Part shown: positions 42,985 through 51,580 of the stretch, piece after piece
Layout: the number at the start of each line of letters is the position of its first letter
Position numbering within the stretch: position 1 is the first letter of the stretch
DNA from: Salinimicrobium sp.
GTDB taxonomy: Archaea; Thermoplasmatota; Poseidoniia; Poseidoniales; Poseidoniaceae
Reading direction: 5' to 3'
Length of the DNA stretch: 64,000 bases
Assembly: GCA_964228865.1 (NCBI GenBank)
Contig: CAXRAI010000015.1
Coordinates: 17,936 to 81,935 of the forward strand
Notes under the pieces: model-generated
Database searches by the model: none
Told to the model about the DNA's origin: nothing
Seen by the model: the letters and a program-made list of their open reading frames with translations, nothing else
Position numbers and translations under genes: made by a program

Positions 42985-43677
42985 ATGGTCTCCCTTGACG
43001 ACGCGGTTGTGGCGCGTTGGGAGCACGGCGGAAAGCGCTACGAAGTTCTTCTCGACCCTGACTTGGTCGAGTCTTTTCGTGAAGACCCTGATGCCGTGAA
43101 TCTTGACGACTTGATGGCCGTCGAAGACGTGTTTCACGACGCCCGCCAAGGCGAGCGCCCTGCAGTGGACGACCTCATCGCGACCTTTGGTTCGGAAGAC
43201 GTCGGTGCGGCAACGCGAACCATCCTCGAACGCGGCAGCATCCAGTTGACCACCGCGCAACGAAAGGCACGCGTCGATGCCATGCGCCAACGCATCCTCC
43301 ACCAAATCCACAGCCAGGCGGTGGACCCTCGGACCAAGTCACCACATCCGCGGGCGCGTTTGGAACTCGCGCTTGAAGAAAGCCGATTCTCTGTGGATCC
43401 TTTCAAGCGGCTTGAAGCCCAAGTCAAGGACGCCATCAACGTCCTCAAACCATTGATTCCACTCTCGTTTGAACGCATCAAGTTGGCCTTCAAGGTCAGC
43501 GGTTCGGCCTACGGTCGTGCTCACCAAGTCCTTCGCCCAGACCTGAAGCGAGAAGAATGGTTGGCCAACGGCGCATGGGTCGGCATCGTGGAGGTCCCGG
43601 CCGCGCGCAAAGCGGACCTCATTGAAGACATCATGCGCTTGGACAAAGACGCAGAAGTCAGGGAACTGCCCTCGTGA
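42985..43677 (+). CDS. SBDS/Sdo1-family ribosome maturation protein
   Basis: 230 aa. VSLDDAVVARWEHGGKRYEVLLDPDLV...VFHDARQGERP...GSIQLTTAQRK are seen. The conserved archaeal neighbourhood next to psmA supports the call. Confidence 0.88.
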   Translation: MVSLDDAVVARWEHGGKRYEVLLDPDLVESFREDPDAVNLDDLMAVEDVFHDARQGERPAVDDLIATFGSEDVGAATRTILERGSIQLTTAQRKARVDAMRQRILHQIHSQAVDPRTKSPHPRARLELALEESRFSVDPFKRLEAQVKDAINVLKPLIPLSFERIKLAFKVSGSAYGRAHQVLRPDLKREEWLANGAWVGIVEVPAARKADLIEDIMRLDKDAEVRELPS

Positions 43678-43725
43678 TTGGGGGCTCATCCATCGACCAA
43701 AGGTCGATGCTCACGTTCAGTGGAC

Positions 43726-44793
43726 TCAGCGGGTCGCGAGGGTGAGGTTCTTCCACATGTCCTCGGGGACTTCCATGGACAAGCGCAGGCCACCCATGGC
43801 GCCCAAGCGAACAGGGTCATCGACCACGTGGACGTTGACGTCACCCATGTCGGACAGGCGGCGCTCAATCATCGCACCAAGACCGCGAATACCAGAGCCG
43901 CCACCGGCGAGCACCATGTTGCGACGGAATTCATCATGGAATTCGGGGTTGGAACCGGCGATGAGTTTCTTGACGTTTTCAACGATGGGATCAACGATGG
44001 ACTCGCAAGCGCGCTGCACACAATCGGTGATGTCGAGGGTCATGGCCTTGCCTTCGATGGAGAAATCCACCATGATGGGATCTTCGGGCGGTGAGGTGGA
44101 CACGAAGGAGTGCTGCTCCTTCCAACGGCGGGCCATGTCCTTGGTGACTTGGGCCCCGTTGTACTTTCCTTGAACTTCCTTGATGATCTGGCCGTCGACA
44201 TAATCGCCGGCGTAGCCGGTGTGCATCTGGTCTCCGGGGCCAGGGATGGTTCCGTAAACGCGGCACAGGTCGGTCGTTCCTGCACCAATGTCGATGACCA
44301 GGGTGTGCTCGAGCATGTCGAGCGCGTAGGCCACAGCGAAGGGTTCGGAGATGATCATGGCGGCGTTCACGGAGCCTGCAGCTGCGTCGAAGATGGCCGT
44401 CTTGTCGACGTGGCTTGCTTCGGCCGGGGCACCGATCACGGCGACCACGCGGTCGTAATCTTCAGGGTCGGACAAGCCGATGAGGTGGGTGATGAAATGG
44501 GCGATGTATTGCCGGTCTTCGGGGGTGTCCTTGATCACACCGAGTTCCAAAGGTCGGTAGAGGTTCAATGCGAGGCGGTTCTTGAGGGCCTCCTCACCGA
44601 ACAGCACGTCACGCTTCAGGAAGTTGCGAGCGACCGGATCCTTGGGGGTCCCGATGACGGTCAACTCTTCCACTTCGTGGGATGCAGAGGACACCATCAC
44701 GGAACGGAAGGTTCCGAGGTCGATTCCAATGTAAAGCGTCTCTTTGGCCATGGGCCCACGAGCGTGGTTTCGCTTATGAACCATCCCTTGCAT
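43726..44793 (-). CDS. actin-fold filament protein, MamK-like subfamily
   Basis: 355 aa (341 aa if it starts at the ATG at 44751). LYIGIDLGTFRS (phosphate 1), AVIGAPAEAS, MIISEPFAVAYAL, LVIDIGAGTTDLCRVYGTIPGPGDQ (phosphate 2) and MVLAGGGSGIRGLG (adenosine) are seen. The strings resemble MamK as I remember it (SEPFMVGYGL, IVDIGAGTTDICALKGTVPGPEDQ) more than MreB. Confidence 0.8.
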   Translation of the reverse strand: MQGMVHKRNHARGPMAKETLYIGIDLGTFRSVMVSSASHEVEELTVIGTPKDPVARNFLKRDVLFGEEALKNRLALNLYRPLELGVIKDTPEDRQYIAHFITHLIGLSDPEDYDRVVAVIGAPAEASHVDKTAIFDAAAGSVNAAMIISEPFAVAYALDMLEHTLVIDIGAGTTDLCRVYGTIPGPGDQMHTGYAGDYVDGQIIKEVQGKYNGAQVTKDMARRWKEQHSFVSTSPPEDPIMVDFSIEGKAMTLDITDCVQRACESIVDPIVENVKKLIAGSNPEFHDEFRRNMVLAGGGSGIRGLGAMIERRLSDMGDVNVHVVDDPVRLGAMGGLRLSMEVPEDMWKNLTLATR

Positions 44794-44802
44794 GATTTGG
44801 TG

Positions 44803-45855
44803 TCAGCACCACGCCTCGCAGGTGTGACAATACCAAGCCGCGTGCTCTGGGTAGAGTTCGGCCATCCCCGAACAGCCCGTGCATTCTTTCTGCGCTTGGT
44901 CGCCAAACATTTGCATGACGATGGAGACGTGATGATGGTCGTCAATTCCGAGTTGTTGACGCATGGCCCAGAGCAGTTGATCCTCGGATGGAGAAATGAT
45001 GCCGTCTTCAAGCACCAGTTCGACCACGCTCTTGTAGTCGTCAATCACCTGAATCTCGCGGTGGTCGAGGCGGATGCCGCCCTTCTCGGCGACGATGTCC
45101 TGGCCACCCGGGTCGTCGGCATAGACCACCAAAGCGCTTGCTTGGAGGCTTTCCTCCCTCAATTCGAGATGAATGCTGCTGCCCTCGAGGTTCGCGTACA
45201 CCAACCGCGAATGGCGGTTGATGGTGTTCGTGATGGACCGTGCCGTGTCCTCCTTGGTGCGACCGCGCTTCCAGCCCGTTGGACTGGATTCGTTGTAGGC
45301 GTAGAACTCGGTGCCGTACCCGGGATATTCCAAGCGGAGTTCTTCACCTCCATCGAAATCGTTGGTGAGGATGTGGAAGGCTGCGACATGGGTGGACACA
45401 AGGTTGTCGTCATCGTCGAAACTGATCATCAGTGGCTTTCGCTCCTCAGCCGCCGCATTGAAGTGACCCTGCATGCCACTCATCCACTTGTCCTCGAGGC
45501 GCTTCAGACTGGCTTCCTGTTCACCTGAAAGTCCCTTGTCGATCCCCAACATGTCACGAAGTTCACCGGATTGGACCTCTTGCTTGAATTGCTCAACCAA
45601 GCCAGCGTTGTAGTGGTGGTCGTCACGGGTAGGACCAGCCTGCTGAACGACATGGTTCGGGTCGGCCCATTCGTAGTTGCACTTTGAACACGAAAGGTAT
45701 CCGGTCATGGTCGAAGGCTGCGCGTCTCCACCGCAACGTGGGCAATCGCCCTCTTCGTTCACGGCCAGGTTGTCTGCTGCTTCACGGCGCCCGCGGCGGG
45801 GATTGAATCCAGCCATGGCCTGAGAGGAGCCGAGACCGGACTTCAAGGTGTTCAT
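44803..45855 (-). CDS. hypothetical protein with CxxC-x14-CxxC zinc ribbons at both termini
   Basis: 350 aa. CPRCGGDAQPSTMTGYLSCSKC lies near the N-terminus and CTGCSGMAELYPEHAAWYCHTC at the C-terminus. The ~250-aa acidic middle region is unrecognised. Its ATG overlaps the upstream stop (ATGA at 45852-45855), and the ORF ends 9 nt before the actin-like ORF. Confidence 0.65.
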   Translation of the reverse strand: MNTLKSGLGSSQAMAGFNPRRGRREAADNLAVNEEGDCPRCGGDAQPSTMTGYLSCSKCNYEWADPNHVVQQAGPTRDDHHYNAGLVEQFKQEVQSGELRDMLGIDKGLSGEQEASLKRLEDKWMSGMQGHFNAAAEERKPLMISFDDDDNLVSTHVAAFHILTNDFDGGEELRLEYPGYGTEFYAYNESSPTGWKRGRTKEDTARSITNTINRHSRLVYANLEGSSIHLELREESLQASALVVYADDPGGQDIVAEKGGIRLDHREIQVIDDYKSVVELVLEDGIISPSEDQLLWAMRQQLGIDDHHHVSIVMQMFGDQAQKECTGCSGMAELYPEHAAWYCHTCEAWC

Positions 45856-46676
45856 GCTCTCGCAACGATGGCTTTGCGCCCATAGCGAAGCGTCCCGTCC
45901 TGTGCGTAGACCCGGCGGACAACGAGTCGAACCTCATCGCCGATGTCCACGGCACTTGGGTGTCCATCAGCATGAAGAAAAACGCCACACGGCCCCTCAT
46001 CGAAGGCGAGGATCATCGAGGTGAGACCTCCGAGGACCGGAGCCCTGATGGCAAACTCCGAAGGGCAACCCGCGGCGATGAGCCGGGTCCACGACACCAC
46101 GTGGGCCGTCAAGGGCAAGAAACCACCGTCCTGAGGCAGCCCGCCATCCTCGAGGGATCCGCGAGGTGGCCAGACATGCCCCGCCTGGGCCTTCATCCCT
46201 AGGCGGGCTTCCATGCCGAGCGCATGCACTTGACCCGAAACATAGGCCCCCTGGGAGACGTTTTCATCGGTCATCTCCATGGCCCACGCTTGTTCCATGG
46301 CGACGTGAACATCAGGCTCCACAGCAAGGCGAAGCTCAGCCGCAACTTCGACCGCATCGAGGTTGAGGGGGATGTCGCGAGGCGCCACGGCCGCTCCACA
46401 CTGGAAACGGTGAACAACGTACGGACCTCCTTCCTGGACGCTGAGCCAAGGGAGACTTGCAGAAACAACCCTCGCTTCATCTTCAGTCATGGAGAGGTGA
46501 ACCGATGCGTGGTGACCACGCCGATTCCACGCCTCGAGGGCATCGATGACCGTGGTGAGGTCATCCGCGTCCGGGGCGTGAACGCGCTCGCCGTTGACGT
46601 GGAATCGGGAAGCGACCACCACCGTCTTGTCGCTGCGGTTCAGAGCGATGCCCGCCTCAGCCGTGTCGAGCATCAT
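45852..46676 (-). CDS. DUF35-like OB-fold protein (thiolase/HMG-CoA-synthase scaffold family) with extra N-terminal domain
   Basis: The start ATG at 46676 overlaps the thiolase stop (ATGA). The C-terminal ~90 aa (LTAHVVSWTRLIAAG...GLTSMILAFDEGPCGVFLHADG...IGDEVRLVVRRVYAQDGTLRYGRKA) look like the acyl-CoA-associated OB fold. The usual CxxC...CxxC rubredoxin-like ribbon is absent. The ~170-aa N-terminal region is unrecognised. Confidence 0.55.
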   Translation of the reverse strand: MMLDTAEAGIALNRSDKTVVVASRFHVNGERVHAPDADDLTTVIDALEAWNRRGHHASVHLSMTEDEARVVSASLPWLSVQEGGPYVVHRFQCGAAVAPRDIPLNLDAVEVAAELRLAVEPDVHVAMEQAWAMEMTDENVSQGAYVSGQVHALGMEARLGMKAQAGHVWPPRGSLEDGGLPQDGGFLPLTAHVVSWTRLIAAGCPSEFAIRAPVLGGLTSMILAFDEGPCGVFLHADGHPSAVDIGDEVRLVVRRVYAQDGTLRYGRKAIVARA

Positions 46677-47842
46677 TCCAGGGACCTCCCAAACACGTGC
46701 ACGGCACACGTCGCACCCGAACCCCCAACGTTGTGCGTCAGGCCAAGTTCAGCGTCTCGAACTTGGCGAGGTCCTGCTTCACCTCGCAGCTGCTTGAACA
46801 CCTCAACCGCTTGTCCGGCCCCGGTCGCCCCCAATGGGTGACCCTTGGCTTTGAGTCCGCCGGACCCGTTGACCGTGGTACGGCCTTCGTTCCGCCGTCC
46901 TTCCCCATTGCGTGCGAACACGCCACCTTGACCTGTCTCGGCCAATCCAAGGTCTTCCGTGGCCAGCAACTCCGCCACTGTGAAGCAATCATGCACCTCG
47001 GCCACGTCGAGGTCGGTGGCTGAACATCCCGACTGCGCATAGGCCTGAGACGCTGCTGAACGTGTGGCTGCAAGGGTGGTCAGGCTTGGCCGGTCGTGCA
47101 GCGCGAGATGGTCAGAGGCTGCCCCGCTGCCTCGCATCCACACCGGTGCATCGGTGATTTTTCGTGCGATGTCCCCTGAGGCCAACACGACGCAAGCGGC
47201 CCCATCGGAGGTCGGACAGCAATCGTAGAGGGTCAGAGGATCTGCGATGACCATGCCGCTTGCAGCCTTTTCGAAGGAGACGTCCTTGCGCAGATGAGCA
47301 TCGGGATTTTCGAGCGCGTGGGCGTGGTTCTTGACGCTGATGTGAACGAGGTCGTCATGCGTTGAACCAAATTCGTGCATGTGCCGTCGAGCCATCAAAG
47401 CGTACGTGCCAGGGAAGGTCAAACCCGCCAAGCGTTCCCATTCGGTGTCTCCAGAAACGCCGAGCCAGAAGCGTTTGCGCTCAGGCGTGAGATCGTTCAT
47501 CTTCTCAACACCACCAACCACGACCACGTCCGCGCGTCCGCTGGCGATCGCCGCCCAGCCGTCGCGCAACGCGAAACCAGAGGACGCACATGCGTTCTCG
47601 ATGCGACGGGCGGGAACCCTTGCCATGCCTGCGTGCTCAGCGAGGTAAGCCGCCGTGTTCCCGAGTTGGCCTCCTCCAAAGGCGGTGGAACCGATGAAGA
47701 CCTCATCCACCGAAGAGGGCGCGAGGTCGCCATCGATTGAGGCAAAACACGAACGCACCGCGTCGGCCCACATGTCCTTCATCGCGGCAGGATGGGTGCC
47801 GTAGGGCGTTTGCCCCGCGCCGACCATGGCGACGTCGACCAT
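46673..47842 (-). CDS. acetyl-CoA acetyltransferase (archaeal thiolase)
   Basis: 389 aa. VAMVGAGQTPYG, RIENACASSGFAL (nucleophilic Cys), GGLKAKGHPLGATG and THNVGGSG are seen. Confidence 0.88.
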   Translation of the reverse strand: MVDVAMVGAGQTPYGTHPAAMKDMWADAVRSCFASIDGDLAPSSVDEVFIGSTAFGGGQLGNTAAYLAEHAGMARVPARRIENACASSGFALRDGWAAIASGRADVVVVGGVEKMNDLTPERKRFWLGVSGDTEWERLAGLTFPGTYALMARRHMHEFGSTHDDLVHISVKNHAHALENPDAHLRKDVSFEKAASGMVIADPLTLYDCCPTSDGAACVVLASGDIARKITDAPVWMRGSGAASDHLALHDRPSLTTLAATRSAASQAYAQSGCSATDLDVAEVHDCFTVAELLATEDLGLAETGQGGVFARNGEGRRNEGRTTVNGSGGLKAKGHPLGATGAGQAVEVFKQLRGEAGPRQVRDAELGLTHNVGGSGATCAVHVFGRSLE

Positions 47843-47925
47843 GCATCTCCATCCACCCCCGGCACTTGACCATCACGGTGGCCGAGGCCGATGATGCTAT
47901 GAACCACGCGCGGGGGCGGGAAATC

Positions 47926-48609
47926 ATGCTGCGCCAGTGTCGAGAGCACGGTCACTTTTCTGGAACGAATTGTCCAGTGTGCAATGAAGAAGGGAAATTC
48001 ATCATGTCAGATCGCGAAGCCAACGCCCTTGGGCGGATTTTGGCGTTGGTGCTTCGTCACGCACCTGAGAAGTTCAACGTCGACATGGACATCAACGGCT
48101 GGGTCGAGACCCGCGAATTGTCCAAGTCGATCGCCGACAGCCGACGTCACCTCCATTGGGTCCGAGCATGGCACTTCGAGGCCATCGCGAACGCCGATGA
48201 AAAAGGCCGCTGGCAGGTGGAAAACGAGATGATTCGTGCCACGTACGGCCATTCCATCGAAATCGAACTCGATCTGCCCACGGACGACATTCCTGAGGCC
48301 CTCTACTGGCCTTGCGAGGCCACTGAGGTCGAATCCCTCCTGAAATTCGGCATCCTCTCTGGGGACCGCAAGCACATCCACCTCTCGCTTACCATCGCCA
48401 ACGCATTGGAAGCCGGTCACGTCCGCATTGGACGCCCATCGATCATCGAAGTGGACACCATCCGAGCCATCGCGGACGGTCACACGATTTACCGCGCGGG
48501 AACCACCGTGTTCCTGACCGACGAAGTGCCTCCTGCGGCCCTCTATCCGGTCGGCGAGGACGATCCGATTGTTCAGGAAACCTTCGCCCGCTGGGACGAA
48601 GAAGAGTGA
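47926..48609 (+). CDS. kptA: RNA 2-prime-phosphotransferase Tpt1/KptA with N-terminal zinc ribbon
   Basis: Internal ATG of track ORF 47737..48609; the upstream part overlaps the thiolase gene. MLRQCREHGHFSGTNCPVCNEEG is followed by LGRILALVLRHAPEKFNVDMDINGWV, RATYGHSI and HIHLSLT. ATG 47899 is an alternative start. Confidence 0.8.
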   Translation: MLRQCREHGHFSGTNCPVCNEEGKFIMSDREANALGRILALVLRHAPEKFNVDMDINGWVETRELSKSIADSRRHLHWVRAWHFEAIANADEKGRWQVENEMIRATYGHSIEIELDLPTDDIPEALYWPCEATEVESLLKFGILSGDRKHIHLSLTIANALEAGHVRIGRPSIIEVDTIRAIADGHTIYRAGTTVFLTDEVPPAALYPVGEDDPIVQETFARWDEEE

Positions 48610-48966
48610 TCATCGCGCGCCGCAGGCTGGGCAGAAGTCCAGCTCCGGATCGAGCATGGCGCCACAGTTCTCGCAGATCCCAGCAGCCAAGGTCGACATG
48701 GTCTCTCGGACCTCAGATTCAACGGTACGTTGCTGGGGGCGCACGACCGCGGTCGGGTCCAAGCCCAAACGAACGCGCTCGCCGTGGGCAGCAACGAAGC
48801 GCATGGCTTCTTGCAAGGCCGCCTGAAGCTGCCGGCGGCGTTGTTCACGCTCAACGGCATCCACAATCGTCTCCGTGGACTCCAGTTCTGCCTGTAGGTG
48901 ACGCATGAACACGTCAACGGTTGCCTCGTCGCCCATGGGTGGACTGTGGGTGCGGCCCGTCTTCAA
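48610..48966 (-). CDS. small hypothetical coiled-coil protein with C-terminal zinc ribbon
   Basis: 118 aa. A helical, Glu/Arg/Gln-rich N-terminus is followed by CENCGAMLDPELDFCPACG. Its 3-prime end abuts the kptA stop. An alternative start lies at 48936. Confidence 0.45.
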   Translation of the reverse strand: MKTGRTHSPPMGDEATVDVFMRHLQAELESTETIVDAVEREQRRRQLQAALQEAMRFVAAHGERVRLGLDPTAVVRPQQRTVESEVRETMSTLAAGICENCGAMLDPELDFCPACGAR

Positions 48967-49010
48967 TCCTCGCGAGGCACCCTCATGAAGCGAAGGGCCG
49001 TGGACCCACC

Positions 49011-49826
49011 ATGGGCCCAGCCGTCGTGGTGAAGCTTGGCGGTGGTCTCATCACCGAAAAGTCGACGCTGACGACCGTTCATCATGAACGCTTGAACCGT
49101 TTGGCACAAGAGATCGCCGTCGCCGTTCAGAGCGGCATCCAGGTCCTCGTCGTTCATGGCGCAGGCTCGTTTGGCCATCTTCGCGCAAAGGCATGGGCGC
49201 TTGCAGAGGGGCGGTCAAAGGCGCAGGGAAACGACGGATGTTCCAACCAAGAAGAGGCCGTAGAGCGTGTGCGTGAAGACATGATGACCCTTGCCGGCCA
49301 TGTTACCCAAGCCCTGCACAACGCAGGTTTGGCCACCAGCACCCACCCACCTCACCGTTGGGTCAACGGGTTGGGGACCAACTTCTCCGGAGACGTGAAG
49401 CCGCTTCAACCCGGGCACATCGTTCCGGTCACCTGGGGTGACGTTGTCCCAGTGGAGGGACCGGCTGAATTTGGCATCCTCTCAGGGGATGACCTCGTCC
49501 ACCGTTGCGCCGTTGAGTTGTCCGGAATCACGAGGGTTGTCTTCGCCATGGGAGGTGCCGATGGCGTGTTGAGAAAACCTCCACATCAGGCCATGGAGGA
49601 GGATTTGATCGAAGAGTGGTCCGACGATGCCGAATTTGTGGGGCTGCACGCGGCGGAGATGGACGTGACCGGTGGCATCGGCCTCAAGGTGCAACGCGCC
49701 AGAAGCATCGCCCAACATGGCATCGAGACCCTGTTCGTGAACGGCGAGGTCGAGGGCCGTCTTCGAGACGCTCTTTTGGGCCATCCTGTACGTGGAACAC
49801 GTTTCCCACCCGCGCAGAAGGGATGA
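49011..49826 (+). CDS. isopentenyl phosphate kinase (amino-acid-kinase fold)
   Basis: The start is set at the ATG at 49011. MGPAVVVKLGGGLITEK, VLVVHGAGSFGH, and GDDL...DVTGG are seen. It is followed 26 nt later by the IDI-GGPPS gene. Confidence 0.8.
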   Translation: MGPAVVVKLGGGLITEKSTLTTVHHERLNRLAQEIAVAVQSGIQVLVVHGAGSFGHLRAKAWALAEGRSKAQGNDGCSNQEEAVERVREDMMTLAGHVTQALHNAGLATSTHPPHRWVNGLGTNFSGDVKPLQPGHIVPVTWGDVVPVEGPAEFGILSGDDLVHRCAVELSGITRVVFAMGGADGVLRKPPHQAMEEDLIEEWSDDAEFVGLHAAEMDVTGGIGLKVQRARSIAQHGIETLFVNGEVEGRLRDALLGHPVRGTRFPPAQKG

Positions 49827-49852: not shown

Positions 49853-51580
49853 ATGGCTTCCGCCATGAGGACCGATGTCGCTGAAGCCGACGCTGAAGTT
49901 CTCGATGGGCTCGACGCCAAGCAGGTGGACATGATGGCCGAGGCCGTCATCCTCGTCGATGAGCAGGACCGCCCCATGGGTCGTGCTTCCAAAGTCAATG
50001 CACACCGCGGTGCTGGTGCATTTCACAGGGCGTTCTCCGTGATGCTGTTCGACCAAGACAACCGTTTGTTGCTCCAACGGCGTGCCGACGACAAGATCAC
50101 CTTCCCAGGCATTTGGGCAAACACATGCTGCTCACATCCACTCGATGTACCCGAGGAACGGGAAGAGCTCGAGGGGCTTGGCGTTCGACGAGCAGCCGTT
50201 CGGAAACTCGACCAAGAATTGGGCATTGACTCCGTGAGCATTGACGATTTGACCCACGTTGGCCGCTTTCGCTACCAAGCCCGTCAGGACGAGACATGGA
50301 TTGAACGTGAAGTCGATCACCTGCTGGTGGGTCGTGTGGCGAACCTCAGCATCAATCCGAACCCCAACGAGGTCGCCGAAACCCGGTGGGTCAGCCAGAA
50401 CGAATTGGAAGCGATGTTGATCGAGGAAGACCCTGAACACCCCATCGCTCCGTGGTTCCGCTGCATTGCAGCACGGTTGATGACCGATGCATGGTGGACG
50501 GCCCAAACCAAAGAAGACTTCCAGAGCCTTCAGGACACGGAGATCCACGACCTTGGTGACGTCAGCCACATGCTTCCCAATGCCGTTGGGGCCGACTTGC
50601 GCACCTCGGTCCTCGAAGTGCTGCCGCTCATCGAATCCCGCATTGCCGCCCGTCTGACCGCCTCCCGGCATCCACGCTTGGGCCAAGCGATGATGCACCT
50701 CATCGAAGGCGGTGGGAAGCGCATGCGTGCGTCCTTGCCTTGGCTTGTGGCCAAAGCGATCGGTGACACACACAGCGGTTTGCTCGACGTGGGTGCTGCC
50801 ATCGAAATCATCCACAATTTTACGCTCGTGCACGACGACATCATGGACGACGATCCTGTCCGTCGTGGACGCCCGGCCGTTCACGTTGCATACGACGTCC
50901 CCACCGCGATCAACGCGGGCGACGCCATGCTGGCCATCGCGTTCGAGCACCTCTGCGATGCACCTGATTTTGACATGGCTTTGTTGCCAGACATCGTCGA
51001 ACGCATCGCATGGATGGTGCGACGTGTATCAGAAGGACAGCAACTCGACATTGAATTCGAGCACGAGAGCGACGTGACGGAACCACGCTACCTCGAGATG
51101 ATCGAGGGAAAGACTGCGGTCATGTTCCAAGTGTGTGCAGAACTTGGCGCCCTGCTTTCGGGGGCAGACGAGGACACCATCGCATGCATGCGGGATTGGG
51201 GCCTCAACGTTGGCCTGTGTTTCCAATTGATGGACGATCTCATCGACGTCGTGTCCGATACGGCCACGCTCGGGAAACCTGCAGGTTCAGACGTTGCTCA
51301 AGGAAAGCGGACCCTGATGGTCATTCACGCCCTCGAACAACCGGATGGCCCAGCCAAGGACGCATTGCTCCGGGCGTTGGGCAAGGGAGAAGCAGCCACA
51401 GCAAAGGACATCGATGCGGCCCACAAAGGCCTGGAATCGTCGGGTTCGATTGACTATGGGCGCCAACGTGCAACTTCGTACCACGCCGCTGCACATGCCT
51501 GCCTGGATCGGCTTCCCCCAAGCCCAGGCGTCCGGGCCCTTCGGGAGTTCACCGATCTCCAACTGGCTCGGCTTTCTTGA
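49853..51580 (+). CDS. fusion protein: type-1 isopentenyl-diphosphate isomerase (Nudix fold) + geranylgeranyl diphosphate synthase
   Basis: 575-aa single ORF. N-terminal half: HRAFSVMLFDQDNRLLLQRRADDKITFPGIWANTCCSHP...GVRRAAVRKLDQELGI...EVDH...NEVAETRWV. C-terminal half: GGKRMRASL, FTLVHDDIMDDDPVRRGRP (FARM, with Phe at position -5) and FQLMDDLIDV (SARM). Confidence 0.85.
   Translation: MASAMRTDVAEADAEVLDGLDAKQVDMMAEAVILVDEQDRPMGRASKVNAHRGAGAFHRAFSVMLFDQDNRLLLQRRADDKITFPGIWANTCCSHPLDVPEEREELEGLGVRRAAVRKLDQELGIDSVSIDDLTHVGRFRYQARQDETWIEREVDHLLVGRVANLSINPNPNEVAETRWVSQNELEAMLIEEDPEHPIAPWFRCIAARLMTDAWWTAQTKEDFQSLQDTEIHDLGDVSHMLPNAVGADLRTSVLEVLPLIESRIAARLTASRHPRLGQAMMHLIEGGGKRMRASLPWLVAKAIGDTHSGLLDVGAAIEIIHNFTLVHDDIMDDDPVRRGRPAVHVAYDVPTAINAGDAMLAIAFEHLCDAPDFDMALLPDIVERIAWMVRRVSEGQQLDIEFEHESDVTEPRYLEMIEGKTAVMFQVCAELGALLSGADEDTIACMRDWGLNVGLCFQLMDDLIDVVSDTATLGKPAGSDVAQGKRTLMVIHALEQPDGPAKDALLRALGKGEAATAKDIDAAHKGLESSGSIDYGRQRATSYHAAAHACLDRLPPSPGVRALREFTDLQLARLS

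Follow-up and report, generated by a model that had tools for sequence, protein, structure and literature searches.

Three pairings of an actin-like filament with an accessory protein, MamJ–MamK, ParR–ParM and arcadin–crenactin, appear to be the nearest functional analogies to the locus described here. MamJ reportedly links cargo to the MamK filament and affects filament dynamics (Scheffel et al. 2006, cited in PMC10746226). Adaptors of the ParR type tie their cargo to the filament by way of a short peptide that binds a cleft in the actin; arcadin-2 binds crenactin via a C-terminal peptide, and the peptides of both ParR and arcadin-2 occupy the cleft between subdomains IA and IIA, on ParM and crenactin respectively. 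Binding of arcadin-2 to crenactin is reported in a published account of that system (PMC5173319). Salactin, an archaeal actin of the Haloarchaea whose closest family is MamK, influences DNA partitioning; synteny around its gene is poor, and no partner is conserved beside it (PMC10746226). Here we consider a gene pair in a 64,000-nucleotide stretch of a Poseidoniaceae genome (contig CAXRAI010000015.1; the whole stretch is called the window below), in which the gene for a MamK-like actin is preceded on the minus strand by a gene for a protein with a four-cysteine zinc ribbon at either end (the two-ribbon protein). On the basis of gene order and protein anatomy, we give a somewhat better than even chance (roughly 0.55) to the two-ribbon protein being a dedicated accessory factor of the MamK-like filament, as an adaptor, a regulator or a nucleator.

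Linkage of the two-ribbon gene to a MamK-family actin gene

Gene order provides the strongest evidence for a functional tie between the two genes. Linkage was assessed in both directions, in 80 loci retained from species-representative genomes and, in reverse, in 80 metagenome contigs retrieved through the actin protein. The MamK-like gene lies directly downstream of the two-ribbon gene, on the same strand, in 80 of the 80 genome loci, and the two-ribbon gene lies directly upstream of the actin gene in each of the 61 contigs with at least 1200 nt of upstream sequence; the six actin contigs without a two-ribbon gene have at most 140 nt of sequence on that side. The genes are still adjacent in a divergent pair that retains 51% identity in the two-ribbon protein and 76% in the actin, and clustering of the flanking open reading frames (ORFs) shows the pair to be unchanged within at least four upstream and at least five downstream gene arrangements. 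A preliminary description of the locus, made from the sequence of the window alone, had staked its proposal of a filament partner on conserved linkage in related genomes, and this is what is found, in both sets and against varying flanks. Its recognition of a MamK-like gene downstream on the same strand is likewise borne out by family scores.

To judge from its sequence, this neighbour is a full-length, ATPase-competent relative of MamK. It scores 357 bits in the NCBIfam MamK model (NF040964) over positions 1-331 of 335, short of the curated cut-off of 400, and the scores obtained in other actin models (BeeR, 207 bits; MreB, 90; salactin, 60) leave MamK the closest by far. Its alignments with the MamK structures 5LJW, 5JYG and 5LJV run from end to end at 249-252 bits, with 38.7% identity over residues 2-336 in the case of 5LJW, and the conserved stretches DLGT, SEPF, DIGAGTTD and GGGS leave the phosphate-binding, catalytic and adenosine motifs intact. 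No magnetosome genes lie nearby; around the pair are genes with housekeeping functions (thiolase, Tpt1, SBDS, proteasome alpha and others), which vary between clades. The dN/dS of the actin gene is 0.01-0.03. The mean pairwise difference across the order is 27% for the two-ribbon partner and 22% for Tpt1 but 8% for the actin, a constraint such as would be expected of a polymer-forming protein. The two-ribbon ORF is also a real, functional gene under strong purifying selection, since its dN/dS in a codon-level comparison is 0.02-0.07 (with dS saturated), and it is from this selection alone that we infer its expression.

The preliminary description had taken the two-ribbon protein to be an orphan, a view that does not survive wider searching. 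A word-indexed search returns 282 protein clusters at 60-82% identity, the named ones being Poseidoniales or labelled 'Euryarchaeota archaeon', and a relative is encoded in 294 stretches of GTDB species-representative genomes, with Poseidoniaceae and Thalassarchaeaceae both included. Among 1.84 billion representatives, clustered at 50% identity, an exhaustive profile search recovers one full-length member, the other matches being fragments. As these searches present it, the family is compact and confined to Poseidoniales (Marine Group II). The block of thiolase, two-ribbon and MamK-like genes also occurs under two bacterial metagenome-assembled genomes, 'Rhodobiaceae bacterium' (L022; CALDQY010000010.1) and 'Salipiger bermudensis' (L077; CAXQWT010000099.1), which are almost certainly mis-binned Poseidoniales contigs. 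A phage or defence origin was considered and rejected, as PHROG gives no match, PADLOC matches are at noise level only and the two-ribbon gene is absent from viral contigs.

Anatomy of the two-ribbon protein

The two-ribbon protein is predicted to be soluble, with no hydrophobic segment of membrane-spanning length, and its pI of 4.75 agrees with the acidic region noted in the preliminary description. Residues are numbered below either in the longest ORF (350 aa) or from the corrected start discussed in the next section (337 aa). The ribbons that had been described at the two termini, CPRC-x14-CSKC (C38/C41/C56/C59, 350-aa numbering) and CTGC-x14-CHTC (C325/C328/C343/C346), are both present, and all eight of their cysteines are invariant in an alignment of 16 homologue sequences. 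It had further been said that the acidic region between the ribbons could be assigned to no family, and for the protein as a whole no Pfam or NCBIfam model reaches threshold; the matches are to generic zinc ribbons, together with weak TerB and ENT matches on EDGIISPSEDQLLW. The first ribbon bears a weak likeness to L37Ae/eL43, IS1595 and TFIIB-type ribbons, in each case under the cut-off. It is preceded by a short tail (residues 1-24, 337-aa numbering) with the basic patch RRGRRE, and followed by a variable linker (residues 53-66).

An AlphaFold2 model built on the family alignment has a mean predicted local distance difference test score (pLDDT) of 71.9, with marked differences along the chain. 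Beyond the linker, helices are predicted with modest confidence at residues 80-95, 98-102 and 111-126 (350-aa numbering). There follows the segment GMQGHFNAAAEERKPLMISFDDDDNLVS, which has the highest conservation of any segment (mean 0.90, with 16 of 28 positions invariant) and is also the least confidently folded part of the protein, with a pLDDT below 50 and no structure predicted for it in the monomer. Top conservation together with low pLDDT is what one typically sees in motifs that become ordered on binding a partner, which makes this segment a candidate docking motif.

The central alpha/beta domain is modelled with confidence, with a pLDDT of 83-94 in the full model and a predicted template-modelling (TM) score of 0.77 when folded alone. 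In the exhaustive profile search it has no homologue outside the family. Foldseek comparison against the PDB, whether with the full model or with the central domain alone, returns only weak, non-significant similarity (best TM-scores about 0.5; best E-values 8.8e-4 for the full model and 4e-3 for the domain alone), the best matches being the outer domains of flagellin, phage tail sheath and phage nozzle proteins. The preliminary description had regarded a match to an unrelated enzyme family as fatal to a filament role; none is found for the central domain by profile scans or by structure comparison.

The faint TerB/DjlA-N likeness that had been noticed in DGIISPSEDQLLW is borne out as a weak match to TerB (PF05099). 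The match reaches 12.6-14.3 bits against a gathering cut-off of 24.4, and covers profile positions 81-112 of 118. The hairpin, with its pattern EDG-I-I-S-x-x-E...L...R..L.I, fits the end of the TerB profile, and the equivalent module of a distant protein (P0183) passes the TerB cut-off at 29.5 bits; here, however, only about 35 residues match, amounting to one hairpin of the TerB bundle, and there is no ter operon context. Distant proteins that have this module score 19.7-29.5 bits for TerB. From its distribution, the C-terminal hairpin and ribbon together make up what looks to be a mobile module, and one that appears to be uncharacterised. The hairpin plus C..C...WYC..C ribbon recurs C-terminally in P0175, P0177, P0183, P0185, P0201, P0208, P0213, P0218 and P0223, the bearers including Lrp/AsnC regulators, a Ser/Thr kinase that carries four copies of the ribbon in tandem (P0177) and several membrane proteins that have a VIIQNIGEYIAGGKVDI.DSVVQRS motif in common. 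At least one module-bearing protein sits on an archaeal contig.

Gene boundaries, transcription signals and neighbouring genes

A 350-codon ORF is present on the minus strand at 44803-45855, as the preliminary description had it, and this is the extent of the longest possible frame. The ATG with which it opens, part of an ATGA overlap with the upstream gene (45852-45855), is not the start used by the family. Homologues nearly all start at a methionine 19-23 residues ahead of the first ribbon (MAGFG, MAEWG or MGIRKG), which places the conserved start at M14 (MAGF), window 45816, and shortens the protein to 337 aa; in two close relatives that are 89-95% identical (L004 and L007), the 13-codon extension upstream carries in-frame stops. 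M14 is taken as the real start for these two reasons, and the ATGA overlap is therefore no signal of translational coupling. The gap of 9 nt reported between the two genes is a longest-ORF artefact of the same kind, because the conserved actin start is MAKETLY at window 44751 rather than the ATG 9 nt past the two-ribbon stop, and the true spacer is 51 nt. The two-ribbon ORF and the longest actin ORF do share a reading frame (43726-45816, minus strand), with one TGA and three codons between them. No natural fusion of the pair is seen among homologues, the listed two-ribbon matches being 300-371 aa and the listed actin matches 297-388 aa in length.

The spacer is 51 nt long in the clade of the window and 93-149 nt in other clades. 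In every locus examined it contains the box GG.AT..TT[C/G]ATAAG, which ends 21-36 nt before the actin ATG and would be the promoter of the actin gene. A related box (CTTGAAG, CTTCAAA or TTCATAGAAAG) is found in most clades at about -26 to -36 from the corrected start of the two-ribbon gene, and in the window, whose genome has a GC content of 60%, boxes of the type WTGAAG, TGATG or TCATAAG lie approximately 27-32 nt before the starts at 45816, 44751, 48936, 40144, 49853, 42138, 49011, 47842 and 47926. Their recurrence suggests that they are the ordinary degenerate TATA-type promoter element of this genome, and that transcripts are mostly leaderless or have short leaders. One clade has a spacer of 108 nt, and there the two-ribbon stop codon is followed by runs of five to seven T. 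Between the same pairs of genomes, dS is 0.7 in the actin gene and 1.2-1.5 in the two-ribbon gene; a value about half that of the partner would fit a stronger codon bias and a higher level of expression, and the lower dS together with a conserved promoter-like box of its own suggests that the actin is the more highly expressed of the two.

These boxes, T-runs and dS values argue against both translational coupling and 1:1 stoichiometry. The preliminary description had claimed the former from an overlap and a 9-nt spacing that belong to over-extended ORFs, and had gone on to co-expression and possibly stoichiometric assembly; neither translational coupling nor stoichiometric co-expression is supported, as each gene has its own conserved promoter-like box and T-runs separate the genes in many clades. 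The arrangement favoured by the sequence signals is one of independent promoters, with the partner probably made at a lower level than the actin.

Two kinds of candidate element were tried and rejected. Small palindromes between the box and the actin ATG are suggestive by eye of a conserved hairpin or operator, but the folding energies do not differ from those of shuffled sequences (mean z of -0.45 over 88 distinct spacers); centromere-like repeats were sought in 43600-47000, which has only short two-copy chance matches and no arrays. Four short metagenome contigs (L113, L116, L091 and L143) begin 0-22 nt from the actin start codon; should any of them be metatranscriptome assemblies, such ends would be in keeping with transcription that begins shortly ahead of the actin gene. 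The features of the pair are collected in Table 1.

Table 1. Features of the two-ribbon and MamK-like genes, in window coordinates
Feature	Position	Strand	Basis or remark
Two-ribbon gene, corrected; 337 aa + stop, begins MAGFNPRRGRRE	44803-45816	-	Homologue starts; dN/dS
Non-coding leader wrongly counted in the 350-aa ORF; box CTTGAAG at 45841-45847	45817-45855	-	31 nt upstream of the real ATG
N-terminal zinc ribbon CPRC-x14-CSKC, basic tail GRREA ahead; residues 25-52 (337-aa numbering)	45679-45744	-	Invariant Cys
Helical region; residues 80-126 (350-aa) = 67-113 (337-aa)	45478-45618	-	AlphaFold2
Most conserved segment, GMQGHFNAAAEERKPLMISFDDDDNLVS; residues 114-141 (337-aa)	45394-45477	-	Conservation; pLDDT <50
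Central alpha/beta domain, family-only; residues 142-255 (337-aa)	45052-45393	-	AlphaFold2; profile search
TerB-like helical hairpin EDGIISPSEDQLLWAMRQQLGI...; residues 256-309 (337-aa)	44890-45051	-	Sub-threshold TerB and ENT matches
C-terminal zinc ribbon CTGC-x14-CHTC, C..C...WYC..C type; residues 310-337 (337-aa)	44806-44889	-	Invariant Cys
Intergenic spacer, 51 nt; TATA-like box TTCATAAG at 44773-44780, GGGATGG ahead	44752-44802	-	Box conservation
MamK-family actin-like ATPase gene; 341 aa + stop, begins MAKETLYIGIDLGT	43726-44751	-	NCBIfam; MamK structures

The gene upstream of the pair (45852-46709, minus strand) encodes a 285-aa protein and overlaps the thiolase gene (46673-47842, minus strand) by 37 nt. 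Only the C-terminal half of this protein is conserved across clades, and that half gives a weak match to OB_ChsH2_C (DUF35; E = 0.096), so that it is probably a DUF35-type partner of the archaeal thiolase. Many loci lack this gene or have it inverted, so it does not belong to the actin module. Further along, a gene for a small protein with a DUF7575 C-terminal zinc ribbon (48610-48966, minus strand) is arranged divergently with that for the RNA 2'-phosphotransferase Tpt1/KptA (47737-48609, plus strand), and the two stay together in most related loci, even in those where the orientation of their block with respect to the actin pair is reversed. The 575-aa ORF at 49853-51580 (plus strand) appears from its sequence to join a NUDIX part, similar to isopentenyl diphosphate (IPP) isomerase, to a polyprenyl synthase, and the ORF beside it (48921-49826) resembles an isopentenyl phosphate kinase by eye. 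In another locus (L081, 748-2448) a 566-aa gene with NUDIX and polyprenyl_synt matches stands beside a gene of the AA_kinase family.

Proposed role, alternatives and comparison with known systems

As an accessory factor of the MamK-like filament, the two-ribbon protein would be an adaptor, regulator or nucleator present below the level of the actin, and not a 1:1 co-polymer. Each gene would be transcribed from its own promoter, with actin in excess. The two proteins would interact physically, with the segment EERKPLMISFDDDDN docking on the actin, whose cleft between subdomains IA and IIA is one possible site, while the two ribbons and the TerB-like hairpin may hold a second ligand, either nucleic acid or another protein. 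A more specific version, which we think rather unlikely, would make the pair a chromosomal ParMRC-like positioning machine, in which the terminal ribbons bind nucleic acid (the chromosome or another large cargo) and the linear motif couples this to a dynamic MamK-type filament. If true, it would amount to a new actin-based system of segregation or organisation in abundant ocean archaea, with an adaptor family that has no relative outside the order.

Several observations weigh against a dedicated accessory factor. Every Poseidoniales locus examined has the two genes, which leaves no signal in presence and absence; the case is one of gene order only. The raw correlation between the distance matrices of the two proteins is 0.73 in a mirror-tree analysis, and it vanishes with Tpt1 as a proxy for the species tree (partial r 0.06, permutation p about 0.13), leaving no detectable co-evolution over and above common descent. 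The top 50 Foldseek matches listed include no gelsolin, profilin or cofilin fold, and separate promoter-like boxes, along with T-runs between the genes in some clades, remove the argument from coupling. Of the preliminary description there remains a conserved two-gene module with a candidate filament partner, upheld by the linkage and by the lack of an enzyme match, whereas its arguments from orphan status, coupling and stoichiometry have gone.

Some of these observations would equally suit a protein that shares a cellular process with the MamK-like filament, or no more than its regulation, and never binds it: a zinc-ribbon factor for nucleic acid or protein, kept adjacent for shared regulation. 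A promoter-like box for each gene, no detected excess of co-evolution, no known actin-binding fold and a hairpin-plus-ribbon that occurs as a promiscuous addition to regulators, kinases and membrane proteins all favour this. We nevertheless consider it unlikely, since without tight functional coupling it is difficult to see why the genes should have stayed adjacent through at least four upstream and at least five downstream rearrangements, and down to 51% identity. It might also be supposed that the protein regulates transcription of the actin gene specifically, its ribbons binding the spacer box or the basal transcription machinery, given that the first ribbon has weak TFIIB- and TFIIS-type matches, that the box ahead of the actin gene hardly varies within the order and that distant relatives have the C-terminal module fused to Lrp/AsnC helix-turn-helix regulators. 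The ribbon matches are, however, generic and sub-threshold, and the box resembles an ordinary -30 promoter element of which similar examples precede other genes, with no conserved palindrome or structured element between it and the start codon; moreover, a large conserved central domain and a conserved linear motif would be left without a role. Regulation of this kind accordingly seems distinctly improbable.

That the protein could be a ribosome- or translation-associated paralogue of eL43 (L37Ae) is hardly credible, even though its first 55 or so residues align with archaeal L37Ae structures (E = 0.0024, 20 bits), the NCBIfam L37ae model gives 17.4 bits and several homologues are named 'ribosomal protein L37AE/L43A' in JGI records. 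The cut-off of that model (NF003058) is 87 bits, PF01780 gives 11.5-16.1 bits against a cut-off of 21.9, and the same ribbon scores equally in IS1595 and TFIIB ribbon models. A ribosomal RNA-binding protein would be strongly basic, whereas the net charge over the N-terminal 52 residues is -2, and approximately 280 further residues have no ribosomal counterpart. No canonical eL43 is found in the window or in the fetched loci, which span too little of a genome to decide the matter.

A dedicated accessory factor of the MamK-like filament would have significance beyond this locus. Poseidoniales are among the most abundant planktonic archaea; to our knowledge none has been cultured, and their cell biology is essentially unknown. 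Full-text literature searches turned up no paper that describes a MamK-like actin of Marine Group II or its partner. A slowly evolving MamK-family actin is present in every Poseidoniales locus examined, always beside a lineage-specific protein of novel architecture, and the two make up a system that is open to expression and testing outside the organism. It would extend the MamK family to a non-magnetotactic role in archaea, and the few actin accessory proteins listed for archaea to date, the arcadins and the Asgard profilins and gelsolins, would be joined by a further candidate. What is new here is the accessory family and its domain combination; the arrangement of an actin-like filament with an adjacent accessory gene is of a known kind.

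Comparison with these known systems brings out both the likeness and the differences. The two-ribbon protein falls outside the ParR and MamJ families, from which it is set apart by its features. Like MamJ/LimJ of the Magnetospirillum magnetosome island, it is an acidic soluble protein encoded directly upstream of a mamK-family gene, although the actin is similarly acidic (pI 4.89) and acidity alone is therefore weak evidence. In contrast to MamJ, it lacks Glu/Pro-rich tandem repeats, being non-repetitive with confidently folded domains; its host is archaeal, no magnetosome genes are near, and its architecture is one of two ribbons, an alpha/beta domain and a TerB-like hairpin (the comparison being one of architecture). 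With ParR–ParM of ParMRC, and with Alp7R/AlfB, the pair has in common a two-gene module of actin-like ATPase and small adaptor. The gene order is reversed, however, with the partner upstream here, and neither the Pfam scan nor the AlphaFold2 model of the two-ribbon protein has a ribbon-helix-helix or helix-turn-helix fold; the actin is of the MamK and not the ParM family, and the pair is chromosomal, in every Poseidoniales locus examined, rather than plasmid-borne. The arcadins and crenactin of the Thermoproteales offer a further parallel, in that lineage-specific archaeal accessory genes are clustered with an actin homologue, although that system, compared here by description, involves another actin family, another archaeal phylum and a multi-gene cluster in place of a strict pair. 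Salactin differs in two respects: the Poseidoniales actin scores 357 bits as MamK against 60 bits in the salactin model, and it stands in an invariant pair with its partner.

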